Positions 43,297 to 64,000 of a DNA stretch of 64,000 nt are shown one piece after another. The first letter of the stretch is position 1; the number at the start of each line of letters is the position of its first letter. Source of the stretch: Nitrosopumilus sp. (GTDB lineage: Archaea; Thermoproteota; Nitrososphaeria; Nitrososphaerales; Nitrosopumilaceae); the NCBI GenBank assembly GCA_965205425.1, contig CBDBGZ010000009.1, positions 192,001-256,000 on the forward strand. Reading direction: 5' to 3'. The position numbers and the translations under genes were made by a program. The notes under the pieces were generated by a model, which saw only the letters and a program-made list of their open reading frames with translations, made no database searches and had not been told where the DNA came from.

Positions 43297-43333
43297 TTTA
43301 AACATTTAAACTTCAACAAATTGTAGAAAAAAT

Positions 43334-44179: not shown

Positions 44180-44264
44180 TTGAGACTTGGGCATAATGAT
44201 TTACAAAAATAAAAACTATTCAACAGCAAAGCAGGGATTGGAGATGATTTCGTATGGGAGAATT

Positions 44265-44492
44265 TTACGAATTTCTACGTTTTATAACAAAAACAATAAC
44301 TATGGATATAGATAACAATATGCTAAAAAATACAAAAGATACAGAATTATATCTTATATCACATCTTTGTAAATCAGAGTTCCAATACAAAAAATCAATA
44401 TCACGATTGCAATCATAAACAAATTCTAGTTCTGCAAAAGCAGATTGATTGCATAGCACCAACAAACTGATACAAATTAAAATTTTTAACAA
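44265..44492 (-). CDS. Small secreted protein with C-terminal anchor
   Basis: Signal peptide, Cys pair, TM. Confidence 0.55.
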   Translation of the reverse strand: MLKILICISLLVLCNQSAFAELEFVYDCNRDIDFLYWNSDLQRCDIRYNSVSFVFFSILLSISIVIVFVIKRRNS

Positions 44493-44507
44493 AATAAAAA
44501 AGAAGGG

Positions 44508-45452: not shown

Positions 45453-46201
45453 ATTATTGTGTCACTATCGAAATTATCAATATTTATACGGTACTATCAT
45501 TTCATGGATACAAAACAAGGCTCTAAATACCTAAAATTAATGCATGTCTGGGAGAATCCTGGAATGAAATTAAATTTAATTCTACGAATTGATTCGTTAT
45601 GATGAAAAGTTAATTTCATTTGAATAAATTTGAAATATGAGGGGGGACCAGTCCTGGAATGAAAAAATTATTTTATTTGCCATTAAAATTAATTTTGACG
45701 TGCAAGGAAAATGCAGAGTGAGATAAGGATGTAAAATATCAATTAATTTTAATCGTGGAATAGGTTTAATTTTAATTCTGGGATGAATTTATCTTTAATT
45801 TTAATCTTTGAATTAAAAGTTTGCAGATCTAAAGTATAGTTTTAAAGTATAGTTTTAAACTGTTATTCTAAACTGTGAATCTAGATTGGGGATGTGTTAA
45901 ATTGATGTTAAATTATTGTTGTTCAACTGAAATATTTGACTTTGATTAAAATTTAAAATGAAACTGAAATTAATCAATAATCAAATTAATTACGGTAGCA
46001 GAAAATTAAGATTAGAGAAAAAAAAGTAAACGGTTAAAGTTAATTGGACGGGAGCAGAAAAAATGAGGAATTTGCGGACTGTGATGAATTTCGGGTATGA
46101 TATTTTTGCGATCAACGATTAATTGATGTGTATGGATTTGATAGTTTTGTCTTGATTTGCTGTCTTTGGATTTAATTCTGTTTGATTGATTCAACAGTTC
46201 T

Positions 46202-46389
46202 TCTCTGTACTCTCTCTGCATCCTCTGTACTCTCTCTGCATCCTCTGTACTCTCTCTGCATCCTCTGTACTCTCTCTGTATCCTCTGTACTCTCTCTGTA
46301 TCCTCTGTACTCTCTCTGTATCCTCTGTACTCTCTCTGTATCCTCTGTACTCTCTCTGTACTCTCTCTGTATCCTCTGTACTCTCTCTG
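46202..46389. repeat. 20-bp tandem repeat (CTCTGTACTCTCTCTGYATC), about 9 copies
   Basis: Directly visible; no spacers. Confidence 0.95.
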
Positions 46390-46460
46390 TATTGTTGTAC
46401 GGTTTAGTCTTCTCTGGATAGTTTTGGTATTTGTTGTGTGTAAATGGTTATGAGGTATTA

Positions 46461-47006
46461 CTATTCATAGTATATCACTGCAACATCGACTCTTGGCTGG
46501 TTGTATGCCCTATGATTAATTGTTACTCCAAATTCATCTACATGTAAATGGGACTCTGCAGAGTCTGGTGCTGTGATGAGTAGTGTCGTACCATCATGAG
46601 ATATTGCTACTGAACCGTAATACATGTGGCGTGGGATAGAGCTGTATGTTATTCCAGCATACTCTGAATTGCATTGCTCAAGTGAGAATTCTACTGTGGT
46701 GCCAAGCTGAACCTGTACACTGCACGAATCAGTTGTAATTGATTCTAGTGTAAATATTGAATCTTGTGGAACTGTTATTTCAAAGGATGTCTCAGCAGAG
46801 TTGCCCGAGTCATCAGTTGCAATACAATAGATGGTGGTTTGTCCTGTATTGTGTATGTTAGATGGATTGCAACTCATTGATACGTCCTCATCTACACTAT
46901 CAGTTGCAGTGGGTTTGAGATAATCTATTGGAAATACCAGATTATTTCCTGAAATGATATCCTCAGATACGCCTGCAAATACCGGAGGGGTTGTATCTAC
47001 AACAAT
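46461..47006 (-). pseudogene. 3' fragment of an HYR-domain surface protein
   Basis: IVVDTTPPVF...ATDSVD...CIATDDSGN; 5' part replaced by IS110. Confidence 0.75.
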
Positions 47007-48355
47007 TATCTATGTGAAATCTTTAAAAACATTTGCACTCTTTTGCAACACATGAGAATGGCTACCGCTAGAGATGATCCCATTCATTTTCAAAAGATGA
47101 AACCGGACACATATCTATTCGAGGATCTCCCTCAGTACCATTCTTCATCCATTTATCAGAACCATGCCGCAGTTACAAAACGAGGATCTCCCTCAATGTG
47201 TTTAACGAGGATTATAGTTCTGATCATAATGTTTCATTATGCATTTTTGATGCACTGGTAAAATGTCATGTTGTTTTTTAACATCCAGTAAATTATTCTC
47301 AACAGTTTGGATGCTGCTGCCACTGCAGCTTTTGATGTCCCCCTCTTTTTTGCAAGACGTTTGTAAAAATTTGTAATGGTGCTGTTTTTTGCATATCTTA
47401 CATGAGAATGTACTGCCTCCACCAGAACCCAGCGTAACATGCTACTTCCTCTTCTTGTTATGGACCCATGGCGTATGGTGTCAGCTGAGTTTCTCACCGA
47501 TGGTACAATTCCTGCATATGAACACAGTTTGTGAGAATCTGAAAATCTTTCGATATTGTCAATTTCAGAGGATATGGTTAATGCAGTAAATCTTCCAACA
47601 CCAGGTATTGATTCTAAGAGTTGTGCGTTAGAATCATGTTTTAGAGCATCCTTGATTCTCATGTCTGACTCTGCGATTCTATCATTGATTGATATTATCA
47701 TCTTGAGATATCCATCTATTCGATAGTCATCTAATCCCAACAGTTTGTGCACATATGAATCAGAAAATGCAGTTCCTGGTATCTTGATTGCATTTTGTAA
47801 GGTTATACTGTGAATCAAATTTTTCATCCTTGTCCTGTTGCGGACTAGTTTGGTTCTATATCTCACCAGTTGTCTTGTTTGCACGGTATCTTTTTCTGGT
47901 ACATGACAAGATGAGATGTATCCTCCTCTTAGCAAATCTGCCAAGATGTGAGCATCAATCTTGTCAGTTTTTTTCTTTGATGCTGCAATTGCTTTTGTGT
48001 GATATGGGTTTGATAGTATTACATCAAATCCTAGTTCGTCTCGCAGAAACCTAAACACGCCATACCAGACAGATGATGATTCCATTACACATTTTGAGTT
48101 TTTTGGGATTGCAGAAAATGCTTTTTTGATATCCCCTCTGGTGTTTGTAATTTTTTCATTGAATAATGTATGTCCTTTATCATCCATTGTTTCGACCTGT
48201 AAGAATTCTTTGTGCAAATCAATTCCGACATAGGTCATGGGTTTTGTCTTTCTAGTCCTAATGATTTTCTTTGGTTTTTTCTTGGAGGTGTATCTTTTAG
48301 AAACTATAGAATCAGCAGTACCATCTAAATTTCGTTGTTTATTCACATATGGTTA
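47007..48355 (-). mobile_element. IS110/IS1111-type element A (transposase 47237-48346)
   Basis: VGIDLHK, KTDKID, SIPGVG motifs; ends TA-ACCATATGTG and CACATAGA-TA. Confidence 0.92.
47009..47236 (-). ncRNA. Bridge/seek RNA candidate of IS110-A
   Basis: Two TGAGG...CCTCG loop modules downstream of the transposase; donor loop matches the element ends. Confidence 0.7.
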
Positions 48356-48568
48356 CAATTTGTATACTAGAACAAACAATCCGAATCCAGGTAACACTAC
48401 AAATGTCATAATCGTGATAGGTATATCCATCCAACAATTACTTCTATCTGCATTTGGACTCCATGTTGGATACAAACAAGCATCAGTTGGATATTGCGCG
48501 TACAGTATGATAGATACAAAGAAAGACAAAAGTAAAAAAATAGTAGATAATATTAGAAATTTGCTCAT
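48353..48568 (-). CDS. Small two-TM protein with Cys loop
   Basis: ORF; stop created at the IS110 junction. Confidence 0.55.
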   Translation of the reverse strand: MSKFLILSTIFLLLSFFVSIILYAQYPTDACLYPTWSPNADRSNCWMDIPITIMTFVVLPGFGLFVLVYKL

Positions 48569-48593
48569 TTTAGATACAAAAGAGTGATTGGCA

Positions 48594-51500
48594 TTATTGG
48601 ATTCTCAAACTTTTTGCGATGTTAGGCCATGGACTGAATATTTTGAAAACCTCTATACAGTTACCATATGGATCTCTAACCTCGTAATGTATAGTATTGA
48701 CATCTATGACACAAGAACCGCCTGCTACAATGCCAAGCATAGTGGATGTACCATTTCCATGATTTATAATACTTTGTTTCCCAACCCCAAATAACCATCA
48801 ACACTCTTTGATGCTTTGAAATCATTTCTGATTCTATTGCATTGCAATCATTTTATTGTACAGACAAACTTTCATTTTCAATTCATGAATCATGTTTTCT
48901 CTCTTGTGCGATGTCACATGCTCTCCAAATATTCTTTTGAATACAGAGAATACTCCCTCTACAATCCATCTATCCCCATAGCTTACGCTGAGCTTCCATA
49001 GATCCAAGTTATACAATTGTGCCAAAACGGACTTTCTCCGAGGATAACAATCAGTTACAACTGATGAGTTTTTTCTTGTTTTAATTGCAGGTAGAATATC
49101 ATTATCATAATACAGATATGAAAAATTATCCTTTGTATCATATGCACCATCAGCCAAAGTTTTAGTGACATTGCCAAACTGTTTTGATTGCTCAACTAGC
49201 GATATGAAATGTTTTGAATCATGTGACTTGTCATCTGTAATATCAATCCCTGTGATCTGTTTAGATTTCACATCTACTGCCACATGAATTTTAAGAAATC
49301 CTCTTCTCTTCTGCCATTTCTGTCTCATCCACTCACCTCTGTTTGCAACCTTGATTCCAGTTGAGTCTATTGCAATGACAATGTCTTTTCCTAGTTTTGG
49401 ATTCATCTTGATGTCAAGTTTGTTGACACGTTTCCAAATGGCAGAATATGTGGGAGTCTTTGTTTTGGATTGGAGGTGTGATTTTATCAGACCTTCTGTT
49501 TGTCTGAATGGAAGATGCAAATAGAGATGACAGTATCCTAGTGCCTCCATGAAGGATTCAGGATAGACAAATCGATGACCTTCCTTTTTGTGATTCATCT
49601 CTTTTAGTTCCATACTCCATGATTCCATTGCGTCAAAGGACAACATGATTTCTCCACGTCTAACTAGTGTTTTGTTGTAATTTTTCCAGTTTCTGTTCAT
49701 GGAATAATACAGAATATTCTGATCTAAAGCTTGGGTGATGAAATTAATTGGATCAACTAGTCATGTTGGGAAACACAGCAATTTATAAAAATAGGCCCCC
49801 CACTATCTCCTTTTTGAGAAGGATATGTAGCTGATACTTGTTCAGTTAAGACATGTGTTTCTAATGACACAGTTACGTTGGTGTAAGAAATGTGACCGAT
49901 ACCATCATTATGTCTTGCAGATATTTCTACTTCTGTACCCCGACTAAAATCATCTAATCCGCCAAAATCAATCACCTGAATAGTTCCATTATTGGTTTGC
50001 AATTCATTTATTTTTGGTGTTATGTTGTCATTAGATATTTCGATCAATACTGCATCAGAATTTGTAGAACTACCCATACTTACATTTGAATCTGACAATA
50101 TTGTCGAACCTATTTCTGGTAGGATTAGGGACAAAGTATCTGTATCAAGACTTACTACTCTGTACAAGCTAGTTAGATGTATGTTATGTGATGCAGTTAA
50201 TAGTGCAGGTGTTCCAGTATAATTTAGAATCAACCCTGCTGTTCCTTGTGAACCTGTAATATGTAAAGGGTTATTTCCAAATATTCTGATGGCATCCCCT
50301 CCACGTAATTCATGTGTCTGTTCATCTTCCGGACATCCATAGTTGCCATCACCTGCCTCATCAGGGCACTGGTCTATCCCGTCATGGAACCCGTCACCGT
50401 CTGCAGGCCTGCCATCAGTTACGGTAATGGTAAATGATTCACTTGCCCTGTTTCCAGCAGCATCAGCTGCATTGCAACTCACTGTTGTTACCCCGATTTG
50501 GAAATAACCAGTACTGTGTGAACATGTAACATTTACAGTGCCATCTATACTATCAGTTGCAGTTACATCAAACTCTGCATAATACCCAAGAGAACTACGA
50601 GGAACTCCAGTAATGTCTGCGGGTATCACAATTACTGGAGGTGCTGTGTCTGCAGGTGTTATATCTTGATCATCATTTTCAACCTTTAGTATTATATTGT
50701 CAATTCCAAACTTGTTATCCTCATCTGCAATTTGTGCAGTTATTCTCATCTTAAATGAGGCAGTATCATCAAGTCTCAGCGTATGCTGTTGCCACAGACT
50801 ATCCCCGCTGGTCCATTTGAACTTTTCAGTCCATGCGCTTCCATCATAAACTTCAACTTTGAGCCAGTCATCACTTTCAAAGTCATCATCAATTAGTTTC
50901 CAAAATGTCAAAGTTATATGGTCATATCCTGATATGTCGATACCCTCACGCATTGTAATGGTACAAGGCTCACATTCATCATCATTTGTTGCAACATCAT
51001 TTGTAATAGTATGTCATGGAATCACCCCGTAATTAGAACCCAGGTCATCATCCTCAATGTCATCCCCGCTTGTATTCCAGTTTCTCATGTTGCTAAATTC
51101 CTCTAGAAATATTGTGTATGCTCCAAGGTCTGCCGGATTGATGCCATTGCCAATTAGTATATTGGCATAGGCTTTGCATACATTGATGAATCCTGGCAAT
51201 ACGTCAGGTGTGCAGTTTGCCTCATAGTATGTTTGGGCAGGTGATGAGGTTTCTGCAATAAACTCTGCATATACTATCTTAATTGGCGCACCAGTTTCCA
51301 AGGCATGCTGTATCTCATTTACATTGTATTTGATACCTGCCACTGCAGCCATCGGATGCATGCCTACGACAAGTATTTTTTCTTCCTCATCAACATATGT
51401 TATGGTAAACGGATAGTCATGCTCATAGCTTCCTGCAGAATGTCCCTCCATGATTCCCGTCAAATCTGAATGCGCCTTGTATAACTCGCTGACTATACCT

Positions 51501-51682
51501 ACAGGACCTACCGTACCATCATCAAAGAGGAAATCATCAGGTGTGGTGGTTGTAGCACTGGTGGCATTAAGATTATCATTGGCACTCTGGGCAAAAGATA
51601 TCATATCATTTTCAGCAGTCGCGATAACAATCATTGAAAATATCAAAACCGCAAACATTACAGTCTTTATTTTATTATTCAC
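48594..51682 (-). pseudogene. Large secreted serine protease with HYR domain, broken by an in-frame TGA (51014) and an IS insertion
   Basis: LTASH, SDA, GDSGGP triad; reading continues HGNGTSTMLGIVAGG...FSPW after the IS is removed. Confidence 0.8.
48770..49780 (-). mobile_element. IS5-family element (transposase 48834-49700)
   Basis: TIR (T)RCTKTGTTTCCCAAC; 8-bp TSD ATTTATAA; IDSTG, ADGAYD, RWIVEGVFS. Confidence 0.93.
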
Positions 51683-51736
51683 AATCACTTTAATACTACA
51701 CAAATTGATTCTATTTATAATTTGTATCCATGTGGT

Positions 51737-52700
51737 GGCCTTGTAGAAACCATGATAAAATAACAAAATCTAATTTTCTAATCCTGTAGGAATTGTATGC
51801 AATTAACCTGTACAACATCTCATTGTCCTGAGTTGTAACATTTCTTGATGTGACATCTCCTGACATTATCTGTTTGATCACAAAAAAGATTGTTTCAGAT
51901 TTGTTTCTCTGATGGTACAATTGTACAGGAAAGTTCCTCTTCATCTCCTTTCTGTGAATTCCGCTGGTTCTGTAAATTGGAACTGTTCCATATCGAGTTG
52001 GAATTATTGCAGCTGTGTTGATCTGTTCTGCACCGACATGGTTATTCTCATCATCAAAACCCATGTCACCTAACACAATATCAACTGGAACAATATTGTT
52101 GGTTTTGTACAACAATGGCAGAAAATCAGGATTATCATGTTGTGGTGTGTCATGACACAGCAAACAAGCTGTGTATTCATGTCAGCACAAACAACAACTT
52201 TTAGGAAATTCCTGCGTAACTGTACTCTTTTTGTATAATAGTATGATGCTGTACTGTAACTGAATCCGCTACCATCAATTCCAGCTAGAACCAGTCTGAC
52301 TTTTTTGTACAAAATGAATTCCTGCAACATTTTATGTAACAGATTTCCTTCCAGTCTTGCAGCTGCCTTTTGTAGTGTGGTGTAATGTGGAATGGTATAC
52401 AAACCAAGATATTCCTGAATTCCTACACATTCTTCTAAAAATTCTGTAAATCTTCTATAACTCTTTGATTCGTACTGTCGTATTGTCAAGAGTATGAGAT
52501 GTGTCCAAACAGAATAGATATGATTTGATTTTGGATGTAAGAACCTGGGAATTCTGCATCTGGTGATTATATTGAGTAGTGTTTTGCACATTTTGACGTA
52601 TGATGAGACCATACTGTAATCTGCAAATACAATCCTAATGGATCTAAATTAGCTAAAATGTATCACAATTGGGTTAAAATCAGATGGTTTCTACAAGGCC
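51737..52700 (-). mobile_element. Second copy of the 40636-41606 IS, frameshifted
   Basis: Same TIRs; small deletion near 52140. Confidence 0.9.
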
Positions 52701-52744
52701 GATATAACAAGTGTTCCAAAACAGATGATGAGAATGATAGACAA

Positions 52745-53035
52745 TTAATCCATCAAACAAGGTAGATAGTAATGACCATTACTGGGCAGAGTCCAACATT
52801 GATCAAACATATCCTCATATATCACGTTTTCAGTTATGAGTATACCATGTTCGTCTTCAATTCTACAATTGGTTGGTGATTGTAAGAAGTGTTCGTCACA
52901 ACGTATGACATATTTTGCATCTTTTAGAAATTGTGGAGTATCTATGGAATCATAAAATGTAATTTGTATTAATGTAATAATTAATATAAAAAATAATACA
53001 ACTAAAACTATTACAAAGTTACGTTTTGATATCAT
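52745..53035 (-). CDS. Small membrane-anchored Cys-containing protein
   Basis: N-terminal TM; four Cys. Confidence 0.6.
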   Translation of the reverse strand: MISKRNFVIVLVVLFFILIITLIQITFYDSIDTPQFLKDAKYVIRCDEHFLQSPTNCRIEDEHGILITENVIYEDMFDQCWTLPSNGHYYLPCLMD

Positions 53036-53049
53036 AAAAAAAATTGGTG

Positions 53050-53898
53050 TTAGTTAGTATAGTGCCACAAAGCTGTATATACATCCCACCAAAAAGTAGG
53101 AGAATCATATGTGTCTAGCTCAGGATTTGGCTCATTTAGCTGTTGTAAAGTATGCCATCCATTACTAATTACACTGCCATAGTGATGAGTTGTAGTATTC
53201 GAATAGATAAAATTCTCATCTCTAAATTCTCCTTCATTACAACCACCAACCCCAGTTAGGTTTTTCTTCCCATAATCATAACCTACACTATCACGATCTG
53301 CCCAAGGATGTTGGATTTGATGATATCCGCTAGCAACAAGTGAATTTTGAATACTTTGTAGATCATCAAAACCATCCTTGTTTACAGTTTTGGAAGGATT
53401 AAGATGTGATGTTTGTCCATATGTTATGCCACAAGCATTAAGTGACCAAAACCAGACACTTGTTTGACCTGAAGCACCACCTTGTGGAGTAGTTGTTGTA
53501 GCATTTGTTAGCAAACTAAACTTGCCAGATTGTGCTTTTGTCATTACATTATCTATGTCAGTTTGATCACCAGTTTTTATCACCTCGGTAATCTTATTGT
53601 TTAGTTTTGCCCATTGTTTCATGATTTTGATGTCATCACGTGATACGCTATCTTTACGCATCTGTTTTTTATCAACAACCATGTTACCTTCAGAATCATA
53701 TGTGACATAACCTTTGGAATTTGTAAATGCCTTATCTATTTCAGCTAGTGTGTATGGTTCTTTTGCAGCTTCTGCTGATTGTATTCCTGATTCACTATTA
53801 AATGGTAGAATCATCACAGCAATCAAAGTAGCAAACAATATAGTCTGTAATTTTGTTACGTTTTTCATATCCTTATCAATAACGATTTTTGATGGCAA
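53050..53898 (-). CDS. Secreted protein with helical pro-region and aromatic C-terminal domain
   Basis: Signal peptide ending SAEA. Confidence 0.75.
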   Translation of the reverse strand: MPSKIVIDKDMKNVTKLQTILFATLIAVMILPFNSESGIQSAEAAKEPYTLAEIDKAFTNSKGYVTYDSEGNMVVDKKQMRKDSVSRDDIKIMKQWAKLNNKITEVIKTGDQTDIDNVMTKAQSGKFSLLTNATTTTPQGGASGQTSVWFWSLNACGITYGQTSHLNPSKTVNKDGFDDLQSIQNSLVASGYHQIQHPWADRDSVGYDYGKKNLTGVGGCNEGEFRDENFIYSNTTTHHYGSVISNGWHTLQQLNEPNPELDTYDSPTFWWDVYTALWHYTN

Positions 53899-53994
53899 TA
53901 AAAACGGTTCTGTGTAATCTAGGTGACCTGTTTTCTTCTGTGTAGTGGGGTGACCTGAGATTTTTTATGAATTGTTAGATGGGGGTGATAACCA

Positions 53995-55331
53995 TAACCA
54001 TATGTGCCAAAATCAGCTAGGAAATTAGATGGTACTTGCATTCGTATCAAGAAAGTAAGAAATGCAAACAAACACACTACCCTTCCTGAAAAAAAATATT
54101 TGATGTTTGTAGGATTGGATGTTCACAAGAACTCTGTACAGGTGGCAGCAGTAGATGAGATTGGCAAATTATTATTTAACAAAAAGATTTCCAGTGATTT
54201 TTCTGCTATTAGCAAAATTACATCCAAAATTCCAAAGAACGCAAAATATGTTTTAGAGTCATCATCTGTCTGGTATGGCCTTTATAGACACATGACAGAC
54301 AAATTACATCTTGATGTTATACTATCTAATCCATACAACACAAAGATAATAGCATCATCACTCAAAAAGACTGATAAAATTGATGCGTACCATCTTGCAA
54401 ATTTGCTACGAGGAGGATACATTGCAGAATCATTTGTGCCAGATCACACAATTGTGCAATACAGACAGCTTGTAAGACATCGACACAAGATTGTGCGCAT
54501 CATTGTAAAGATGAAGAATTCCATACATGGTATTACACTACAGGAGGGAATCCATATCAAAGCAACACCATTTTCCTCAGAACACATACGTGCACTTGGA
54601 AAATTGGAGAGTTATAGAATAGATTCGTACCTACAAAGCATAAAATTTCACAAAAAGGAGGTTGCAAAAATAGATTCCATGATACGTCGCATGGTAAATG
54701 ATAATCCTGACGTGTGTATTTTGACATCAATACCTGGAGTTGGACCATACACTGCATTGAGCATATTCTCAGAAATTGCAGAGATTAGTAGATTTTCAAA
54801 TTCTCGCAAGTTATGTGCATATGCAGGGATTGTTCCATCGGTGAGAAATTCTGCAGATACAATACATCACGGAAGAATTACAAAGAGAGGAAGCACCATG
54901 CTAAGATGGTTGCTAGTGGAGGCAATTCATGCACATGTTAGATGCGCACCAGATAGCGACATTACAAAATTTTACAATCGCATTAAGAAAAAGAGAGGGA
55001 CCTCAAAGGCAGCAGTTGCTGCTGCATCAAAGTTATTGCGTGTCATATATTGGATGCTAAAAGAGAGGAGAGAATTTATTCAATGTCATCAATAATTTGT
55101 AAAACATTACAGTTAGGAGTTTGGCCGCGTTTTCACATTGAGGATGCATAATACCTCGAAACTATAACCGCGGTTTCACCTAATAAATGGATGAAGATGG
55201 TACTGAGGGAGATCCTCGAATAGATATGTGTCCGGTTTCATCTTTTGAAAATGAATGGGATCATCTCTAGCGGTAGCCATTCTCATGTGTTGCAAAAGAG
55301 TGCAAATGTTTTTAAAGATTTCACATAGATA
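53995..55331 (+). mobile_element. IS110-B (transposase 54004-55095, intact)
   Basis: VGLDVHK, KTDKID motifs; ends TA-ACCATATGTG and CACATAGA-TA. Confidence 0.92.
55096..55329 (+). ncRNA. Bridge/seek RNA candidate of IS110-B
   Basis: 3' ~150 nt nearly identical to IS110-A; 5' target loop differs. Confidence 0.72.
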
Positions 55332-56453
55332 TGTGAATAAGAAGACAAGGAAATCAGATAGCATAAAAAATGAATCTAACAGTTCCAAAACTTGCAGTGT
55401 ACTCTCTCCAAAAAAGATTACAAACAAACAGATTAGGAAAAATCCAAAGAAAGGCATGTTTGTGGGCATTGATCTGCACAAAAAGTTTCTTCAAGTAGCA
55501 ATAATGGATGATACAGGCAAAGTATCACAAAACGACAAAGTGGATAACACTCATGAATCCATCAAAAAGTATTTTACAAAAATACCAATTTCTGCAAATA
55601 TTGTCATGGAATCCTCATCAGTCTGGTATGACACGTATCGATTTCTGACAGATACTTTGGGATACAAAAACGTCACACTCTCAAACCCATATTTGACAAA
55701 GGCAATTGCTGCATCAAAAAAGAAAACAGACAAGATTGATGCCAAGATATTGGCAGATCTTTTACGAGGAGGATACATTGCCAAATGCTATGTTCCAGAC
55801 AAAAAGATTGTACAACAAAGACAGCTTGTAAGATATAGGAAAAAACTAATCCAATGGAGAACATCTGTCAAGAATTCAGTTCATGGAATATTGTTACAAG
55901 AAGGAATCAAGATTCCAGGAGTTACATTCACTGAAACATACAACAGAAGACTCAAGGCACTAGGAGATTACAGAATAGACGGATTCTTGCAACAAATCAG
56001 CCACACCTTAATTTACAGATTGCAGAGATTAATTCCAAAGTGTATGCTGCTGTAAAAGTTAATCCTGATGCAATTTTAATAAACTCGATTCCAGGAATTG
56101 GGCATTATTCTTCGCTTGTCATTGCATCAGAGATTGCAGATATTGAAAGATTCAATGATTCTCACAAACTGTGTGCATATGCAGGAGTTGTACCATCAGT
56201 TAGAAACTCTGCAGATACAATACACCATGGCAGAATAACAAAACGAGGAAGCATGACATTGAGATGGGTTCTAACCGAGTGTATACACACTCATGCAATA
56301 CATGCCAAAGATAGTGACATTACAAAATTTTACAATCGCATTAAAAAGAAAAGAGGATCATCCAAAGCTGCAGTAGCTGGTGCATCAAAGATCCTGAGGG
56401 TGATTTATTGGATGTTAAAGGAGAGGAGAGAATTTGTACAAAATTATAGTTAG

Positions 56454-56655
56454 GACTGCAAGTCGCGTTGTAATTATTGAGGGACAAGGCCTCGTTTGAT
56501 AACTGCGAACAATCCTAACTAGGATGAAGATAGCATTGAGAGAATAGTCTCGTATGGATACATGTCTGCCATCTTTTGATTGAAACCATTCTCTAGCGAA
56601 AGCTATGCCCTGATGTATGGAAAGAGAGGAAATGTATAAAAACAATTCACATGGA
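56454..56655 (+). ncRNA. Bridge/seek RNA candidate of IS110-C
   Basis: Same architecture; guides TGTAATT and TGATA match its flanks; ATGGATA matches its own right end. Confidence 0.72.
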
Positions 56656-57019
56656 TAAATTACAAAAAGAGATTACAGAGCTAAAGAAGAAATTATCCTA
56701 CTATGAGAACCCAAACTCTCCACCATCATCTGATTCTCTCCACTGGAAAAAACAAAAGAAAGAACGAAAATCAACTCATCCAAACAAACCAGGACAAAAG
56801 CCAGGACATGATGGTAAAACTCACAGCTTCAAACCCACAAAAACAATTCATCATGATTCAAAGAAATGCTCAAACTGTGGCAGTAAAAAATAACTCAAAC
56901 TACACAACAAACTCGAATCATTGCAGAAATCCCAAAACCGCAACCAGTTACCATAACAAAACATGTTATTCCTTCTTACTTTTGCAACAATTGTGGAAAT
57001 ACAACAGTTACTGATTGCC

Positions 57020-58046
57020 GGGTGTGTCCTAAAAGTAGACAAATATAACAATTTTATTCAATTCTGTAACATATTGATCGCATGGAATCACAACAACTAT
57101 GCAAAACAAATCAAAAAGAGACTGGCAAGTATATGGCACATATCGCAAGGATGAGGAGATTCTATTCTTGGAAAAAGTAAAGAAGACAGTTTGGAGTATG
57201 GATACACCATGGGAACCAAAGACAGGCGGACGTCCTGCATTTCCAACAAAAGCAAAGATAATGTGTGCAATGCTAAAGGTAAAGTTTGGATTGGATTATC
57301 GTTCCATGGAGTCCCACTTGAGATCAAGGCCGGATCTGTTGGAAATAATGGAGCTCAAAAAAGCACCAAGCAAGACTGTCATTAATGACAGTCTAAAAAG
57401 AATTCCAATGCCTTATTTGAAAAAGGTAAACGCAAAACTCACAGAACCAATCAAAAAAAAGACATAGCTCCTGACAGTTCAGGATTTGGTACCAAAAGAT
57501 GTGAGGCTTGGTTTGACATCAAGACAAACACGCACAAATCCAAGAAATTATATCTAAAACTGCACATCCTAATTGCAATACAGTCCATGGCAATAGTATC
57601 TTTTGACATTACTAAAGGAACTCGTGGTGATGCACCAATTCTCAAAAAATTAATCAAAGACATTCCAAAGGGAATTGGTGATTTTTGTGCAGATCCTGCA
57701 TATTTGTCACGAGACATTTGCAATATGGTAGCTACTCTGCAAAAGATACCATACATCAAACCAAAGAAGAACACAGTTAGAAATCCCAAAGGCTCTGCAT
57801 CATGGAAAAAAAATGATAACATTATTCCAGGACAATCAAGATGAATTTGACAGACATTATCACAAGAGGTCACTTGTTGAATCAGTATTTGCAGTACTCA
57901 AAAGAATCTTTGGAAATAGCTTGTCATCAAAAAACAAGTTGGTTCAAAGAAAAGAGTTGGCGTTGCGTGTAATTTGTTACAACATACGAGTTGTTAATTT
58001 GATGGGGGTTACAAAACATGTTAGAGGATAGTTTTAGGACACACCC
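57020..58046 (+). mobile_element. Second copy of the IS5-like element at 21672-22697 (extra frameshift)
   Basis: Same TIRs; extra A near 57810; no TSD. Confidence 0.92.
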
Positions 58047-58076
58047 TCTTTACGCAGAAGGGATATTAACGGTTCT

Positions 58077-58526
58077 TTGTTCGACATACCAATTAAAGAC
58101 CCTCACGTAGGACTTGTTGAAATTCTAAATAATCTACCAGTTAACGGAATGGAATATTTACCGAATCGAGTTATGGGATTCTTTGAAGTGTTGTTCCCCG
58201 ATTATGTTCCTGAAAATCTAAGAAATTTTTTGATAACTATAAAACAAGTAGAAAACAATCCATCATTATTACAATTCTCAAAACATGAAGCAGTAGATAC
58301 TAGTGCAAAATCCATAAAAATAGGACTGGAATCCAAAGGATCAAATGATGAATGGTTTGAAATTCTTAATTCAATAGGATGGATAAACACCGCTGGAAAA
58401 ACAACTCAAAACATCAATGAATTTACCAGTGGTCTAGTATTGCCAAAAGGACAATCACAACTAAGGGCAGTATTACAACTATTGGGGAATCTAAAAATAT
58501 CTGCTGATGTCGTATTGTCGAACTGA
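58077..58526 (+). CDS. Hypothetical protein, probably 5'-truncated by the IS
   Basis: ORF abutting the IS end. Confidence 0.5.
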   Translation: MFDIPIKDPHVGLVEILNNLPVNGMEYLPNRVMGFFEVLFPDYVPENLRNFLITIKQVENNPSLLQFSKHEAVDTSAKSIKIGLESKGSNDEWFEILNSIGWINTAGKTTQNINEFTSGLVLPKGQSQLRAVLQLLGNLKISADVVLSN

Positions 58527-58563
58527 TTTTATCCTCATATATCAGTTATAATCATACAATACT

Positions 58564-58701
58564 ATGACTATAGGATATTGTGTAAAGTGCAAATCAAAGA
58601 GAACTATGAAAGGTGCAACCAAAACAAAGATGAAGAACGGTAGACCTGCAACTAAAGGCAAGTGTACAAAATGCAATACTGGTATGTTTAGAATTGGTTA
58701 A
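58564..58701 (+). CDS. DUF5679-like small Zn-binding DNA-binding protein (45 aa)
   Basis: MTIGYCVKCKSKRTM...MKNGRPATKGKCTKCNTGMFRIG; not in the ORF track. Confidence 0.8.
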   Translation: MTIGYCVKCKSKRTMKGATKTKMKNGRPATKGKCTKCNTGMFRIG

Positions 58702-58707
58702 GATAAA

Positions 58708-58986
58708 ATGAAAAAACTAAACAAAGAAAATATATCAAAAATAAAAAATGTTTCAGGATATTACAAAATTTTCAACAAAAATAGAAAATTGGAATATGTA
58801 GGGGTATCTAAAGTATTACGTCATAGGTTACAATCATACTATCAAAAAGACGATTTCACAGTAAATAAAACTAAAAGGTCTCTTAGACCACACGCAAAAA
58901 ATTTCACTGTAGCATATATGGGCATTAATCAGGCTAGAAGACTTGAAAAAGAAATGAAAAAAAACACGCCACATAATAAATTATGA
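58708..58986 (+). CDS. Stand-alone GIY-YIG-like nuclease domain
   Basis: SGYYKIF...YVGVSKVLRHRLQSY...LEKE...PHN. Confidence 0.75.
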   Translation: MKKLNKENISKIKNVSGYYKIFNKNRKLEYVGVSKVLRHRLQSYYQKDDFTVNKTKRSLRPHAKNFTVAYMGINQARRLEKEMKKNTPHNKL

Positions 58987-58995
58987 GATGAAAAT

Positions 58996-59187
58996 TTGTC
59001 TGAATTCAAATCGTATCGAAAAAAACCAATAATCATAAGAGCAAAACAAATGAATGAACCATTTGAGGTCAAAACAATGGAAGGAACGATGAAAGGAAAA
59101 ACAGGTGATTATTTAGTAGTTGGAATCAAAAATGAAAAATATCCGATTGATAAAGATATTTTTGAAAAAACATATAATCCAATTTAA
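58996..59187 (+). CDS. Small phage-type protein (PGDYG-like)
   Basis: YRKKPIIIRA...TMEG...GDYLVVG...YPIDKDIFEKTY. Confidence 0.75.
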   Translation: MSEFKSYRKKPIIIRAKQMNEPFEVKTMEGTMKGKTGDYLVVGIKNEKYPIDKDIFEKTYNPI

Positions 59188-59523
59188 TTTTTCTAAAATT
59201 TAGGGATTAACTGAACAAATTAGGATGTTTTTATATCACATTAGTGGACTGGTAACAGATGGAAAATTCCACCAAGATCAGAATTAAAGATAATCCTTTG
59301 TTGAAATTGTTAAGTCGAATTGGTAAGTTGAGAATAGGTCGAGTTGGATTGACTGAAATTTTAATTATTCTTACTTTGATTTTCATTATAGGAAAACTAT
59401 TGTAAATTCTATATACCCAGCAAACGCATGGCGTTGTAATCCATTTTTCCAAGCCTCTTAGGATTTTCCCTTTTGAGCCTCTATATTTTGAAAATAATCT
59501 AAAAGTGTAAAGATAACCTACCT

Positions 59524-59809
59524 TTTACAAAAATAATTTCCAATATCGCTCTAGCAACACAGCATTCTCTTCACAATTCTTGGATTCTCTGTTTTTGTTA
59601 TGCAATTGTAATATACTGCAAGTTGATACACCAACACGCAAACCAATACAAATGATTTCACGTTGTCAAATCCTTTCACATGTACAGTTCTAATGTTGAA
59701 CGTATCTTTGAATATTTCAAATAAAGGTTCAATTGAAACTTTTCTTTGTGAGTACAACTCTTGACCAATTACAGAATTGTAAAACTCTACGAGTGTTATT
59801 CTCTCTGGT
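59524..59809 (-). mobile_element. Transposase 3' remnant of the 60632-61775 family
   Basis: QELYSQRKVSIEPLFE...KRMLCC. Confidence 0.8.
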
Positions 59810-59854
59810 GGCAAAAAAATACGCAAAAAGTATAAGTGTTGATGGCCTTTTGTA

Positions 59855-60457
59855 TTGGAATCTTTTTTATTAAAATCTATATTACTGTATAATGAATTCA
59901 AAATATTGCCAATCGAATCACTCATGTTTTATTTTACTGGAGAAAATGCATTGACAAATCTAGCAGCAGTTGTAACTATTTTATCTCTTGGCATATCTTC
60001 AATTTTATATTTTGTTAAGAGATGGCATGACACTTCAACTGAAAAAAGAAGGGCTTCTAAAAATCTCTATACGGAACTCGATGATGCTTTGGACGGATTA
60101 GATGAAAAGATATACACCAATGATCTTAGAAAGATAAAACTTAACGATAAAGATTATGCGTATTTTATGAATCGCAGACTGAATCATGATTTTTATGATA
60201 GTTTAATTTTTTCAGGAAAAATAAACTTCCTAAAATCAGAACTACAACAGTCAGTACAGGATATATTTCAAATTATAAAGGATCATAATTTTTATCTTAA
60301 AAAAATCAGAGACATTGAAGATAATGCAAGAGTTGGAGATGATATATCTTCCATAACAAAACGATACTATGAACAGTTAGATAAAGATGAGAAATCTCTA
60401 CTAGAACGTATTCCAAAAATGAAAGAAAAACTCAAGAAAGAATTTAAGATAAAATAA
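59855..60457 (+). CDS. Membrane-anchored hypothetical protein
   Basis: TM plus coiled coil; true start probably ATG 59924. Confidence 0.6.
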   Translation: MESFLLKSILLYNEFKILPIESLMFYFTGENALTNLAAVVTILSLGISSILYFVKRWHDTSTEKRRASKNLYTELDDALDGLDEKIYTNDLRKIKLNDKDYAYFMNRRLNHDFYDSLIFSGKINFLKSELQQSVQDIFQIIKDHNFYLKKIRDIEDNARVGDDISSITKRYYEQLDKDEKSLLERIPKMKEKLKKEFKIK

Positions 60458-60631
60458 TTGATTATTTCTTCTTTGGTCTGGAATTTGCAGGCATTTCAGC
60501 ACTTGTAGTGCTAGATACTCCTTCTCTGCTACCTATGAACTCTTTACCATGTTCTTTGGTTCTAAGATGTTTTGGACTTTCATCAGTCATGATGTGATTA
60601 CTGTCTTGAATTATTTAAACTCTAACTAATA

Positions 60632-61775
60632 TGAGACATGGGCATAACTAATTCTAATTTTTGAGTCAATTCTCAAATTATTCAAATAGAAAAAGCTAAG
60701 GATCTTATCATGTTTTGTTCATTGTAATGTCAAAACAAATGAAAATCCCTAACAAGATTCTATCGGAATCATTTCTTATTGGTATGTTACATTTGGTGGG
60801 AATGTTGTCTTTGTATGAAGAGATACTGAAAACTTGGTAGACCGTACGTATACTCTACAATTCTAATGGTACAGCTGTCCATCATAAAATCTTGGATGAG
60901 AATTCCTAGTAACAATACATTACATTATTTCCTTTCAATCAAACCTTCCAATGACAAACTGCTCAAGGTTTGCAAATTAACTCAAATTCCAGACAGAAGA
61001 ACTATTGACAGACGATTTCAATTTCTACCCATTAGTGACATGATTAGTACCATGGGCAACAAATTCATCTCAGAGGGATTGGTGGAAAATGTTTCAGCAT
61101 CAGGGGATAGTTCAATGCTAAAAGCAGATGGTCCAGTATGGCACAAATCAGACATAAAGAACAATCGTCTACCAATCCCAGGAATTGATACTGATGCAAA
61201 ATGGGGTTTTTCAAAATCAAAGGGTTGGATATTTGGATACAAACTGCACATGAGTTGCAGTACTGGAAAACTGATAGTTCCATTGTCTGCTGATGTTTCA
61301 ACTGCAAATGTTTCTGATGGTAAAATGTATGAAACGTTAGTCAAACCACTTGCAGGACTAGTTGAAAATGTTCTATGTGATGTGCCATATGATGATAAAT
61401 CATTATATCAGTTTAGTGATGGGAGACATTTGAGATTGATTTGTCCTATCAAAATATATCCATCAACACCGCCAGAGCGAATCAAACTTGCAGATTTTTA
61501 TAATTCTGTACAAGGTCAAGAGTTGTACTCACAAAGAAAAGTCTCAATTGAACCTTTATTTGAAATATTCAAAGATACGTTCAACATTAGAACTGTACAT
61601 GTGAAAGGATTTGACAACGTGAAATCATTTGTATTGGTTTGTGTGTTGGTGTATCAACTTGTAGTATATTACAACTGTATAATTGGAGCAGAAAATCCAA
61701 GAACTGTAAAGAGAATGCTTTGCTGTTAGGAAATGACTGAGAGTTATTTTTGTAAATAATTATGCCCAAGTCTCA
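60632..61775 (+). mobile_element. IS4/IS5-superfamily DDE element, transposase degraded at the 5' end
   Basis: TIR TGAGACWTGGGCATAA; DSS, GYKLH and RKVSIE motifs. Confidence 0.85.
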
Positions 61776-62136
61776 GATATTTTGGTACAAGTTCCAAGTC
61801 ATTATGAGAATGAATATTTTTTTCAAAGTAATTCTCAGATGGACCCATTACAACATAGTGAGATAACACATTAAATGCCCCGTTTGATTTTATTGGTTCT
61901 GCCCTGAACCCTTGGCAGGTATCTGAACCCTTGAATTTGAAAACAAAATGGCTTGCATCTCCAGGGTACAATGAACCATCAGGATTGTTTCGGAATTGTC
62001 CTCCATATGAAATAGGAAATAGTTTTCCGTCAATACTAACACTGCATGGTTTTTCTAAACTCTGATGAGTTGCATATGCGGTAGTAACAACAATCGGAAT
62101 GAATAATAGTAAAAATAACAAGAGAATAATTTTCAC
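61776..62136 (-). pseudogene. 5' part of a secreted protein truncated by the IS
   Basis: Signal peptide; ORF runs into the TIR. Confidence 0.6.
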
Positions 62137-62187
62137 AGTTTCAAATGAAAATTAAGTGTAAAAAGGAAGAATTTAGAAAATAACCCA

Positions 62188-62349
62188 TCAAGATATTGAA
62201 ACTTTGCCTGATTTTTCTATGGTAAATGTTACAGTATCTGGAATGTTAAGGAATTGATCTAAAGGTTTTGGTAATGTCATCTTGACATCTTTTCCAACTC
62301 GGTTAACACTTACTGTAAATTTTGTTGCACCTTCTTTCCATTTTGGCAT
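62188..62349 (-). CDS. AbrB/MazE-like swapped-hairpin DNA-binding protein (53 aa)
   Basis: MPKWKEGATKFTVSVNRVGKDVKMTLPKPLDQFLNIPDTVTFTIEKSGKVSIS; upstream TATAAATA; not in the ORF track. Confidence 0.75.
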   Translation of the reverse strand: MPKWKEGATKFTVSVNRVGKDVKMTLPKPLDQFLNIPDTVTFTIEKSGKVSIS

Positions 62350-62375
62350 ACATAACAGTACAAATACTACTATTT

Positions 62376-62417
62376 ATATTCTACCTAATACATAACGTTA
62401 ACATATTCTACCTAATA
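62376..62417. promoter_or_regulatory. Direct repeat ATATTCTACCTAATA x2 in a divergent promoter (putative operator)
   Basis: Exact 15-mers at 62376 and 62403, between the AbrB-like gene and the tRNA. Confidence 0.65.
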
Positions 62418-62429
62418 ATTAATATTTGT

Positions 62430-62500
62430 GGGCCAGTAATTCGAAGGTCGAATCTCTAGTCGTCAACTAGAAGGCTCGGGTTCGATTCCCGACTGGTCCA
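62430..62500 (+). tRNA. Atypical tRNA: anticodon GTC (Asp) on an Ala-type acceptor (G3:U70, A73), with C33
   Basis: GGGCCAG/CTGGTCC-A; D ATTC/GAAT; AC TCTAG-TCGTCAA-CTAGA; T TCGGG-TTCGATT-CCCGA. Confidence 0.85.
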
Positions 62501-62535
62501 CGTAATGTTTATTTAGAAATGATATGTAGAATAAT

Positions 62536-62580
62536 TAGTTGACGACTAGATGTTAGTTCGCCTTTGAACTAGCCTTTTTT
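62536..62580 (+). ncRNA. Sequence antisense to the 5' half of the upstream tRNA, ending in a hairpin and T6
   Basis: TAGTTGACGACTAGA is the exact reverse complement of 62455-62469; degenerate complementarity continues through the D arm and acceptor. Confidence 0.55.
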
Positions 62581-62655
62581 CTATTTTCTGAAAATTTTAG
62601 AGGGGTTTAACATCTAGGCATAATTTCAAAAAATCATTACACCATTGAGTTTTTG

Positions 62656-62897
62656 TGCGTAAGTAAATTTTGTGACAATATCGTATTGTGCCATCGGGCT
62701 GAAATGAGGTTTGATTGTTCCATTTACGAACAAAAGCTAAACCCGCCCTGAATTTTGGGAATTGTAAAAAATTCACATCATGCCTGATGTGAATACAATA
62801 ATTGAGGGGGTGAATATTTACGCATAAGTTTTTTCCAATTTTACATATTTGATAGGGGGTTTAGCTTTTAGGCACAAATTTGGTCATTAACAAATTT
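62656..62897 (+). ncRNA. Candidate large multi-stem structured RNA with possible pseudoknot
   Basis: Stems 62686-92/62871-77, 62732-44/62857-69, 62771-80/62785-94; two small hairpins; 62656-65/62815-24 pairing; G-U pairs favour + strand. Confidence 0.55.
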
Positions 62898-62931
62898 TAT
62901 TAATTCATCATGTAATAATAAATTAGAAACA

Positions 62932-63019
62932 CGTCAGGAATGGGATTCGAACCCATGAAACCGATGTACTCAGCAAAGAGATTTTCAATCTCTCGGTATT
63001 ACCACTAACCGATCCTGAC
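62932..63019 (-). tRNA. Atypical class II tRNA: anticodon GAA (Phe) with long variable arm and G73 (Ser-type body)
   Basis: GTCAGGA/TCCTGAC-G; D GGT/ACC; AC AGAGA-TTGAAAA-TCTCT; 20-nt variable region with GCTGA/TCGGT stem; T ATGGG-TTCGAAT-CCCAT; upstream TTAAATA. Confidence 0.85.
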
Positions 63020-63267
63020 GAGTTTTCTTCTAAAAATTCCTATTTAAGAATTGGTTCTGATGTATTCAAGTGAATAAAATCTTAGAATATTCAACCTTTA
63101 AAAAATAGAAATTTGTATTATTATTACGGTTCCGTTGGTGTAATGCTGACTATGAGACTTGGAAACAAGAGCTCAGGGATCGACTTTATCTTTCAACATT
63201 TCAATATATGAAAAAATAACTAATATTGTAAAATTTCATAAAACCTCTATTTCTCATTATTCTCACA

Positions 63268-63483
63268 ATGGTCAGCCGTGACTTTGTAATTTTGGATTAT
63301 TCACACCAAAGAAAGTACAGAAATCATACATGTGCAAAATGCGGAGACTTATTTAGTATAGGTGATGCTGTCCATACTCAAAGAACAAAACGTTCTAAGA
63401 GAATATGTCACAAACAATGTTGGGAGTCAATGTATACCCCAGATCATAAGTCTTTTCAATTTATTGTTCTTGCAAAATACTGA
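63268..63483 (+). CDS. Small LIM-like Zn-finger protein, 3' end overlapping an IS
   Basis: CAKC...CHKQC. Confidence 0.55.
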   Translation: MVSRDFVILDYSHQRKYRNHTCAKCGDLFSIGDAVHTQRTKRSKRICHKQCWESMYTPDHKSFQFIVLAKY

Positions 63484-64000
63484 TACATATTCAAATTAAA
63501 TTTGTGGGTTCTAAAATATTCCATAACTGTATGTCTCATCTCATGAATAGATTCATAAAATTCTGATTCAACATTAACATGTTTGCACTGTCTCCAAATC
63601 TCTTCAATCATACTCAAATGTGGAGAACCTCTTGGAAGATATGCCAGTTTGACATCTTTGTTTTTACGCAGATATTCTTTTACATCATTAGCTTTGTGTT
63701 GCGGTGCTCTATCGACGATAACAAATATTTTCCCGAATTTTTTACGAGCTGCCTCCAAATAATCCATAAATGCAATTGAGTTAAATTTTTCATACGATCT
63801 AAAAAAACTTTGATTATCATCAGTCATCATTCCATAAACCAAAAATCTTTGGTGCGATCCTCTCCAACGTACAATCATTCGTTGGTGTACATCTGTCCAG
63901 TATTTTTTACCAAGACGTACATCGTCTACAAATACAGACTCGTCTTGGATGAATACTGTAAAACCTTTCTTTTTTGCCTTTTCTATGCGTGAAATGATGC
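63456..64000 (-). mobile_element. IS630-family transposase (partial)
   Basis: IVDRAPQH, LPRGSPHLSMIEEIW. Confidence 0.85.

Follow-up and report, generated by a model that had tools for sequence, protein, structure and literature searches.

The 64,000-nucleotide (nt) stretch analysed here, referred to as the window (contig CBDBGZ010000009.1 of the Nitrosopumilus sp. assembly GCA_965205425.1, positions 192,001 to 256,000 of the forward strand), contains at 62932-63019 an intact class II transfer RNA (tRNA) gene that joins a serine-type body to a phenylalanine anticodon. The gene belongs to an accessory, conserved and often multi-copy family of the ammonia-oxidising archaea. The preferred reading, to which a probability of roughly 0.45 is assigned, is that of a mobile-element-associated, serine-accepting missense tRNA that would read phenylalanine codons.

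ARAGORN calls two tRNAs in the window, one of which is this gene (a 90-nt tRNA-Phe(gaa), 62931-63020, minus strand). The Rfam tRNA model RF00005 matches 62932-63019 on the same strand with 56.9 bits (gathering score 29, E 7.9e-11), and under the family covariance model R1 the gene scores 88.5 bits. The eight-base-pair (bp) acceptor stem in the ARAGORN drawing arises because C-1 can pair with G73. The 5' strand of the acceptor is followed by U8 and C9, the D stem is GGU/ACC with U13 and U22 mismatched, and all five pairs of the anticodon stem (AGAGA/UCUCU) form around a loop of U32 U33 G34 A35 A36 A37 A38; as read from the sequence, CCA is not encoded 3' of the gene. The features listed in the initial annotation, namely a perfect 5-bp anticodon stem around UU-GAA-AA, a stem-bearing variable arm of 20 nt, G73 and a TATA box about 25 nt upstream, were all recovered, the stem and G73 by direct reading, the arm as a hairpin in an isolated fold and the box as the motif given in Table 1. 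The single-sequence minimum-energy fold of the gene fuses the anticodon and variable arms, and the support for the cloverleaf comes from covariation. Public DNA contigs from sequencing runs of three studies, where one run may be the source sample, cover 62627-63200 with zero differences, and the gene is therefore no assembly artefact.

The covariation set consists of 30 distinct family members, whose alignment was fitted to the family model and is thus biased towards structure. In this alignment 97.3% of cells are paired and 15 of the 20 pairs have changed on both sides, including all five of the anticodon stem, with compensatory change in all four stems. None of 500 shuffles reached any of five covariation measures, and sliding the partner by one to three columns leaves 36-49% of cells paired. 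Acceptor stems vary as whole units (e.g., GUCAGGG/CCCUGAC versus GUUGGCG/CGCCAAC), and the variable arm, diverse in sequence and 14-22 nt long, forms a hairpin of at least 4 bp in 26 of the 30 members. The 7-bp acceptor and 5-bp T stems of the family cloverleaf are backed by covariation, and its D stem has 3-4 bp and its D loop 8-11 nt. Alongside these changes the universal tRNA core is kept (U8, A14, G18G19, A21, U33, a purine at 37 and the T loop UUCRAAU), and the anticodon loop takes three forms, CUGAAAA (18 members), UUGAAAA (10) and CUGAUAA (2). Of the TATA-like motif starts, 17 fall between -30 and -26, and none of the other 5-nt bins between -100 and -1 holds more than six. Judged from these sequences, purifying selection maintains a class II cloverleaf of the canonical 7/5 form in the family, which has its own TATA-type promoter.

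The initial annotation had also allowed for a slipped loop register displaying the serine anticodon UGA and for homologues with GGA or UGA anticodons, and neither is borne out. Slippage would place C at position 33 and break the stem in the 18 CUGAAAA members, while the GAA register covaries at five of five pairs; the homologues have GAA in 12 of 12 pattern matches and in 28 of the 30 members, with GAU in the other two. Two further constructions were rejected by eye. The variable arm as an intron would need the two bulges of a bulge-helix-bulge, but it is a plain hairpin, and a canonical tRNA-Phe is present; an antisense open reading frame (ORF) from a conserved downstream ATGAAAC crosses the tRNA in differing frames among copies.

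Serine identity does not depend on the anticodon, and G73 and G30-C40 are strong elements for both the bacterial-type and the archaeal seryl-tRNA synthetase (SerRS), with G1-C72 also found to matter for the archaeal enzyme (PMC9976931, in the part drawn on here). Within the family G73 occurs in 30 of 30 members, G1-C72 in 28 and G30-C40 in 26; the window copy has all three together with the long stem-forming arm, on a loop without a serine anticodon (NGA or GCU). The canonical serine tRNAs of the genome likewise carry G73. For phenylalanine, the same part of that source lists A73 as required, plus G20 in A. pernix and yeast, and G34, A35 and A36 as strictly conserved determinants, and it reports that phenylalanyl-tRNA synthetase (PheRS) mischarges yeast tRNA-Tyr given GAA (PMC9976931). 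The window gene has G34, A35 and A36, and it carries G73, U20 and a 20-nt arm where the canonical tRNA-Phe(GAA) of the genome (69% G+C) has A73, G20 and a short variable loop. Leucine identity is disfavoured by the same discriminator, as all five listed leucine tRNAs of the genome have A73, and G73 is reported as an antideterminant for the LeuRS of H. volcanii (PMC9976931, same part). Among the other Nitrosopumilus genomes sampled, the top canonical match under the family model is tRNA-Ser(GCU), at ~69-72 bits. The selenocysteine tRNA has a UCA anticodon, a 9/4 branch in archaea and a D stem of 6-7 bp; the window gene has GAA, a 7/5 branch and a short D stem.

The host genome (2.2 Mb, 33% G+C, 9 contigs) carries introns in several of its tRNAs. 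Beside its canonical tRNA-Phe it has serine tRNAs with the anticodons GGA (intron-bearing), UGA (two genes), CGA and GCU, one SerRS-type gene and one PheRS alpha/beta pair; no additional SerRS-type or PheRS gene was found in the genome. With a full canonical set for both amino acids and single synthetase sets, the window gene is therefore an extra tRNA gene without a dedicated synthetase. The codons it would read are common ones. UUY accounts for 4.4% of codons in the genome, alongside AUY at 6.6% and GAY at 6.0%; these three pairs, for which the matching anticodons are GAA, GAU and GUC, are among the four NNY pairs used most.

Three paralogues of the family occur in this genome (C9:254931-255020, which is the window gene, C8:120792-120883 and C9:901280-901368). 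An anticodon-blind pattern, composed of the 5' acceptor strand, a gap and the T arm with the 3' acceptor strand, was run on contigs of one genome per species and matched 12 places, all of them with YUGAAAA, in Nitrosopumilus metagenome-assembled genomes (MAGs), one Nitrosotalea MAG, two 'Thaumarchaeota archaeon' MAGs and one contig binned as Leptonemataceae. The last of these holds an array near-identical to one in Nitrosopumilus and is probably mis-binned. At 75 bits or more the family model finds 29 matches in 17 of 151 Nitrosopumilus genomes, and 16 of the 17 carriers are at least 1.7 Mb in size. In an even sample of the order (151 genomes, 64 genera), GAA-confirmed members are restricted to the host genome, a single congener and a single representative of another genus in the same family, at a threshold that would miss more divergent members.

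Relatives are also present in metagenomes, where the search pattern fixed GAA or GAU in the anticodon and 80 loci were fetched. Among the matches listed, at least 22 are full ARAGORN tRNAs (at least 19 with GAA and at least 3 with GAU) and at least 30 match the family model. They differ strongly in the acceptor stem (GGCGCGG, GAUGGGU, GACUGGU, GUCGGCG and others), and at least five of the relatives among the matches listed have a T-loop insertion of ~12-28 nt at an archaeal-intron-like position. These insertion-bearing relatives are class II, with GAA, G73 and GC-rich acceptors (GCCGAGG and similar), and have none of the pairing between leader and trailer described below. Two family-specific patterns matched no IMG/VR contigs; a looser pattern of T arm plus trailer matched six, two of which, predicted viral contigs, carry GAA family members beside ORFs with no Pfam or PHROGs match.

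Several copies depart from the single intact gene. At G164:C1:406766-407600, four to five copies form a tandem array with a 292-bp unit of promoter, tRNA and conserved 3' box, set between PAPS-reductase, zinc-ribbon, DUF4326 and MT-A70 genes; some of its copies are degenerate, with unpaired acceptor or T stems. The copy at G007:C1:554900-555014 has a ~24-nt tandem duplication in the D arm (GGTATAGCGATATAGCGATATAGCG...), keeps GAA and the conserved 3' flank and is probably inactivated, and the G015 copy has a degenerate T loop.

The family is further set apart by its flanks. The leader reads AAACUC in 13 of the 30 members and AAACCU in others, and the trailer, counted from G73, reads GGGUUU in 21. 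A leader-trailer helix of at least 5 bp can form in 20 of the 30, versus none of the 50 other tRNAs of the genome, in which the maximum is 4 bp. Table 1 gives the count pair by pair for 55 sequences, metagenomic ones included. Pair -3/75 is C-G in 30 sequences and U-A in 9, an exchange that is due to the GGCGCGG subgroup, with its AUUAUCU/GGAUGGU flanks. In the window copy the helix is broken by U-2 opposite U74. Given the position of the TATA-like peak, the transcript is expected to start a few bases upstream of the tRNA, and a near start combined with termination in a T run should yield a blunt, fully paired precursor. The conserved helix suggests a restrained maturation, which may differ from that of an ordinary tRNA. 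A conserved non-coding box, TCYTTAAAAAGTTTCAT, lies ~35-50 nt 3' of many copies, including C8:120792 and C9:901280, and is absent from the window copy; whichever strand is read, it resembles an archaeal TATA box, and transcription driven from it in the reverse orientation would be antisense to the tRNA.

The window gene is located in an island rich in insertion sequences (IS), which holds three DDE_Tnp_1 and three IS110 genes, two IS630-type transposase genes, DUF5131 and GIY-YIG, and housekeeping genes (FMN reductase, pyrophosphatase) restart ~2.5 kb past the window end. For 23 other copies, housekeeping genes often make up one flank (GlutR, arginine decarboxylase, Rpb7, EPSP synthase, histidine genes, eIF-6, rhodanese) and the opposite flank holds transposases, ParB, MT-A70 methylases, DUF4326, PAPS reductase, HicA or restriction genes. 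One copy has a tyrosine integrase directly downstream, with a PriX-like primase, and in another genome a 1.6-kb inverted duplication containing the family tRNA brackets 37 kb. The family is thus tied to mobile DNA, whether as cargo or as target. Neighbour content is variable. When the 574 ORFs surrounding 24 copies were compared all against all by BLASTP, no protein family recurred at more than 6 loci, and no synthetase or tRNA-modifying gene was found by Pfam among 139 flanking ORFs. Integration into tRNA genes is common among thaumarchaeal elements (PMC6563490, in the portion used here), and it would leave partial 3' tRNA copies as attachment-site (att) duplications; none of 18 nt or more was found in the window or the genome. 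An attachment-site reading was rejected on this ground and since the tRNA-Phe att sites in the part of the PMC6563490 supplement drawn on are canonical A73 tRNAs.

The second ARAGORN tRNA of the window lies 430 nt from the serine-type gene and is called as a 72-nt 'tRNA-Asp(gtc)' (62430-62501, plus strand). Its acceptor (GGGCCAG/CUGGUCC) has the G1-C72, G2-C71, G3.U70 and A73 of the three alanine tRNAs of the genome. Seven such alanine-type genes occur in this genome, 71-74 nt long and low in G+C, with the anticodons GUC (3), AAG (2) and GAA (2). For members with non-alanine anticodons sampled across the genus, G3.U70 and A73 are present in 21 of 21 and positions 4-7 covary; their anticodons are GAA (7), GUC (6), AAG (5), GAG (2) and GAU (1), and several have C33 in place of U33. 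The canonical tRNA nearest to this second family is tRNA-Ala(UGC), at 60.8 bits. Members scoring at least 64 bits occur in 15 of 151 genomes, of which 9 also have the serine-type family versus ~1.7 expected by chance, a co-occurrence that is inflated by related and larger genomes. The alanine-type genes are flanked by a covarying copy of their own anticodon arm, direct at about -50 in the Leu and Phe types and inverted at about +35 in the Asp types; apart from the tandem arrays, no such copies were found for the serine-type family. In the window the inverted copy of the arm stands at +35 to +40 and extends over the whole 5' half of the gene, and 62425-62575 (approximate limits) folds as a single long hairpin (-53.5 kcal/mol, z -4.95) to which the Rfam Y RNA-like family YrlA is a weak match (E 0.59). 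It should be noted that 62468-62682, the 3' part of the gene with the downstream hairpin arm, has 2-5 times the surrounding depth in public-run DNA contigs, with breaks at both ends, which marks it as a repeated element in the samples concerned.

Additional mismatched genes occur outside these two families. C9:356126-356209 (minus strand) is class II with G73 and the acceptor GUCACGA, close to the serine-type family, and has the arginine anticodon CCU; the canonical tRNA-Arg(CCU) is present at C9:675463-675555 (plus strand), where a D-loop insertion (intron) caused ARAGORN to miss it. G143:C1:438023-438108 is class II, 64% G+C, with G73, the acceptor of the canonical tRNA-Ser(GCU) (GCGGGGG) and the arginine anticodon ACG. 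An 85-nt tRNA-like sequence at C9:1042184-1042268 (plus strand) combines A73 and a leucine-type D loop with the glycine anticodon ACC, and its variable region is long but pairs poorly; it could be either a chimera of the leucine type or a copy that has degenerated.

Table 1. Features of the window (window positions unless a C handle of the host assembly is given) and pairing along the leader-trailer helix of the family (tRNA numbering).
Feature	Position	Strand	Basis or remark
Class II tRNA gene, tRNA positions 1-73, 88 nt	62932..63019	-	Rfam, ARAGORN, family model, covariation
Acceptor stem	63013-63019 / 62933-62939	-	GUCAGGA/UCCUGAC, 7 bp
D arm	62995-63010	-	GGUU-AGUGGUAA-UACC; then G26
Anticodon arm	62977-62993	-	AGAGA-UUGAAAA-UCUCU
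Anticodon GAA (G34 A35 A36) within loop UUGAAAA	62984..62986	-	Sequence reading
Variable arm, 20 nt, UUGCUGAGUACAUCGGUUUC	62957-62976	-	5-bp hairpin when folded alone
T arm AUGGG-UUCGAAU-CCCAU	62940-62956	-	Sequence reading
Discriminator G73	62932	-	Sequence reading
TATA-like box TTAAATA, -28 to -22 from tRNA position 1	63041..63047	-	Sequence; positional peak in family
Leader AAACUC, complementary to trailer	63020..63025	-	Helix of window copy interrupted at -2/74
Trailer UGUUUC 3' of G73	62926..62931	-	GGUUU at same place in most relatives
Helix pair	-1/73		Paired in 51 of 55
Helix pair	-2/74		Paired in 43 of 55
Helix pair	-3/75		Paired in 44 of 55
Helix pair	-4/76		Paired in 45 of 55
Helix pair	-5/77		Paired in 45 of 55
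Alanine-type tRNA-like gene, 71 nt, Asp anticodon GUC, C33	62430..62500	+	ARAGORN; Rfam 52.4 bits
Inverted copy of 5' half of alanine-type gene	62533..62574	+	Fold and sequence comparison
Other six alanine-type genes in host genome	C2:54916-54987, C9:711260-711332, C4:165846-165917, C4:166055-166126, C9:454069-454140, C8:191679-191753
IS-rich variable island holding both tRNA genes, ~25 kb	40496..64000		Pfam scans
DDE_Tnp_1 genes (three)	40496-41518, 48834-49700, 60866-61729		Island; Pfam
IS110 genes (three)	47237-48346, 54004-55095, 55255-56453		Island; Pfam
DDE_3	63456 to past window end		Island; Pfam

According to the preferred reading, the mature RNA would be given CCA and then serine by the single SerRS of the cell, an enzyme expected to ignore the anticodon and to rely, as it does where tested, on the long arm, G73 and G30-C40. 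The serylated tRNA would read UUU and UUC, and the outcome would be phenylalanine-to-serine missense carried by mobile DNA. Harm is to be expected from such a tRNA, and its output is therefore probably kept in check; the helix of the AAACUC leader and GGGUUU trailer may hold a closed, blunt precursor that limits or gates maturation by RNase P and RNase Z. Candidate gains to the host or the element are conflict, defence, addiction and stress mistranslation. Serine, alanine and leucine are identities independent of the anticodon (PMC9976931, in the part used), and the placement of foreign anticodons on scaffolds of synthetases that ignore the anticodon suggests, as the strongest indirect support available, that charging matters. 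A broader proposal, rather unlikely as a whole, is that ammonia-oxidising archaea harbour, on their mobile elements, a toolkit of deliberately mismatched tRNAs that acts as a latent, RNA-only, translation-poisoning toxin, abortive-infection or addiction system with the tRNA itself as the active agent. Its scaffolds would be serine-type (GAA, GAU, CCU, ACG), alanine-type (GUC, GAA, AAG, GAG, GAU) and perhaps one leucine-type, its targets the most used NNY codon pairs AUY, GAY and UUY, and its latency would come from the leader-trailer helix in the serine type and from the anticodon-arm copy in the alanine type.

Several points weigh against a serine-accepting missense tRNA. In this genome the canonical tRNA-Leu(UAG) scores 60.4 bits under the family model and tRNA-Ser(GCU) 60.0, so that on sequence the body is equally close to both and the serine assignment depends mainly on G73. 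The identity rules for SerRS, PheRS and LeuRS come, as far as the analysis of these sources goes, from organisms outside the Thaumarchaeota. The conserved helix is just as compatible with a 3' end that is never released. Lastly, tRNA-Ser with GAA or GAU is among the most toxic of all 64 anticodon variants in yeast (PMC6125640), and with three copies in one genome and UUY as frequent as it is, this points to a gene that is silent, weakly active or not used in decoding.

The last of these options is an explanation in its own right, somewhat doubtful in comparison with the missense tRNA: a tRNA-shaped RNA that stays as a closed precursor or uncharged and would act for the mobile element as its regulator or primer, or else as a decoy or sponge for a factor that binds the anticodon loop of tRNA-Phe, be it an anticodon nuclease, a modification enzyme or a sensor in defence. 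The helix that buries the 3' end and the missing CCA are consistent with this, as are the tolerance of three copies of a tRNA predicted to be highly toxic and a fixed loop beside freely covarying stems, in keeping with a protein that recognises the loop. The alanine-type companions, often with C33 and with flanks able to sequester the anticodon arm, point the same way, and activity in translation was lacking in most of the allo-tRNA(UAU) species that were assayed (PMC5389517, in the part drawn on). A mere decoy of tRNA-Phe would, however, have no need for the full serine set with G73 in every member, nor for the universal tRNA core that the family keeps, and the intron-like T-loop insertion in some metagenomic relatives implies the tRNA maturation machinery. 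It is distinctly improbable that the gene is a supplementary tRNA-Phe, charged by PheRS through GAA and boosting the reading of UUY in AT-rich genes of the mobile elements. Viruses and mobile elements often carry tRNAs that match the codons they use, UUY is a common pair, and the three anticodon determinants are present, with the mischarged yeast tRNA-Tyr(GAA) as a precedent (PMC9976931, same part). This explanation is opposed by G73 in place of A73 throughout the family, by U rather than G at position 20 and by the active maintenance of the long arm. It is opposed as well by the sister genes with GAU, CCU and ACG on like bodies and by the G3.U70 retained in every alanine-type member sampled; varied anticodons on constant identity sets are what charging independent of the anticodon, and not driven by it, would be expected to give.

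Two explanations would remove the mismatch altogether. A reading of the gene as a tRNA-Ser pseudogene in decay, or as what integrating elements left of an attachment site, in either case functionless, has in its favour the IS-element surroundings, the damaged relatives (G007, G015 and the array members), the integrase downstream of one copy and the habit of thaumarchaeal elements of integrating into tRNA genes (PMC6563490, in part). It is nonetheless very improbable, as compensatory change in four stems and the variable arm beside a fixed loop and G73 is not neutral decay, each copy has a promoter-like box and the genome holds no partial 3' copies. That the gene is really a tRNA-Ser, either with its loop read one base over as UGA or as a recent single-base mutant of tRNA-Ser(GGA), would fit the single substitution between GGA and GAA and a register in the window copy with four pairs and a G.A mismatch that shows UGA. 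The likelihood of this is close to negligible, since GAA stayed fixed while every stem diverged, slippage leaves unpaired stems in most members and the genome already has its own serine tRNAs for GGA, UGA, CGA and GCU. Stem covariation with a fixed loop and G73 therefore excludes the pseudogene, the recent point mutant and the slipped register for the family.

Should the family be charged and used, it would constitute a conserved device that places serine at a common codon pair of globally abundant nitrifiers, with a bearing on conflict between elements and hosts through translation and on the tolerance of cells for ambiguity in the code. Should it not be charged, it would be a new tRNA-shaped regulatory or decoy RNA. 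In either case the family is a trap for annotation, as gene callers label its genes tRNA-Phe. The evolutionary evidence is unusually clean, with all stems diverged and yet G73, the long arm and GAA held.

Natural tRNAs in which charging identity and anticodon disagree are rare and the known cases are bacterial or eukaryotic, and the present case would be archaeal. The proline-type tRNAs of Streptomyces are another known bacterial mismatch of identity and anticodon. In the CUG-clade yeasts, a serine-identity tRNA(CAG) reportedly decodes in vivo a codon that otherwise specifies a different amino acid; its gene belongs to the chromosomal core and underlies a lineage-wide codon reassignment, whereas the window family is patchy (17 of 151 genomes) and competes with an intact tRNA-Phe. 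The same two anticodons as in the window family have been placed on a serine body in yeast, where tS-F(GAA) and tS-I(GAU) insert serine at phenylalanine or isoleucine codons, were among the 11 most depleted of 64 variants and, for tS-F(GAA), had their toxicity eased by extra tRNA-Phe (PMC6125640, as given in the part consulted). Those tRNAs are engineered and eukaryotic, and the window family is natural, archaeal and known from genes alone.

The nev-tRNAs of nematodes (Hamashima et al. 2012, PMC3333845, in the part used here) resemble the window family in being class II, lineage-conserved and equipped with an anticodon for neither leucine nor serine, and their identity comes from the discriminator and the variable arm rather than from the anticodon. 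They have A73 in all 115 genes, are leucylated and chromosomal and tend towards rare codons (PMC3333845, same part), in contrast to the G73, the archaeal hosts and the frequent UUY target of the window family. The bacterial allo-tRNAs, which insert serine at leucine codons and arrest the growth of E. coli, are accessory and, like the window family, combine a long variable arm and G73 with a non-serine anticodon near transposon-related genes (Mukai et al. 2017, PMC5389517, in the part drawn on). Their genes also occur near toxin-antitoxin genes (PMC5389517, same part), and the archaeal copies near transposases, integrase, HicA, ParB and MT-A70, so that the window gene has the variable arm, the G73 or U73, the non-serine anticodon and the mobile or toxin-antitoxin surroundings of an allo-tRNA. 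The allo-tRNAs have an 8/4 or 9/3 branch, a D arm like that of tRNA-Sec (long stem, tetraloop) and 35 anticodons, with Phe once (PMC5389517, same part), whereas the window family is archaeal, with a 7/5 branch, an ordinary serine-type D arm, a near-fixed GAA and the leader-trailer helix; counting C-1:G73 as an eighth pair would give 8/5 and not 8/4. A full-text literature search, which did not reach the supplements of bioRxiv preprints, found no description of the family. By its predicted behaviour the family is functionally akin to the allo-tRNAs, but in structure it is a member of neither the allo-tRNAs nor the nev-tRNAs.

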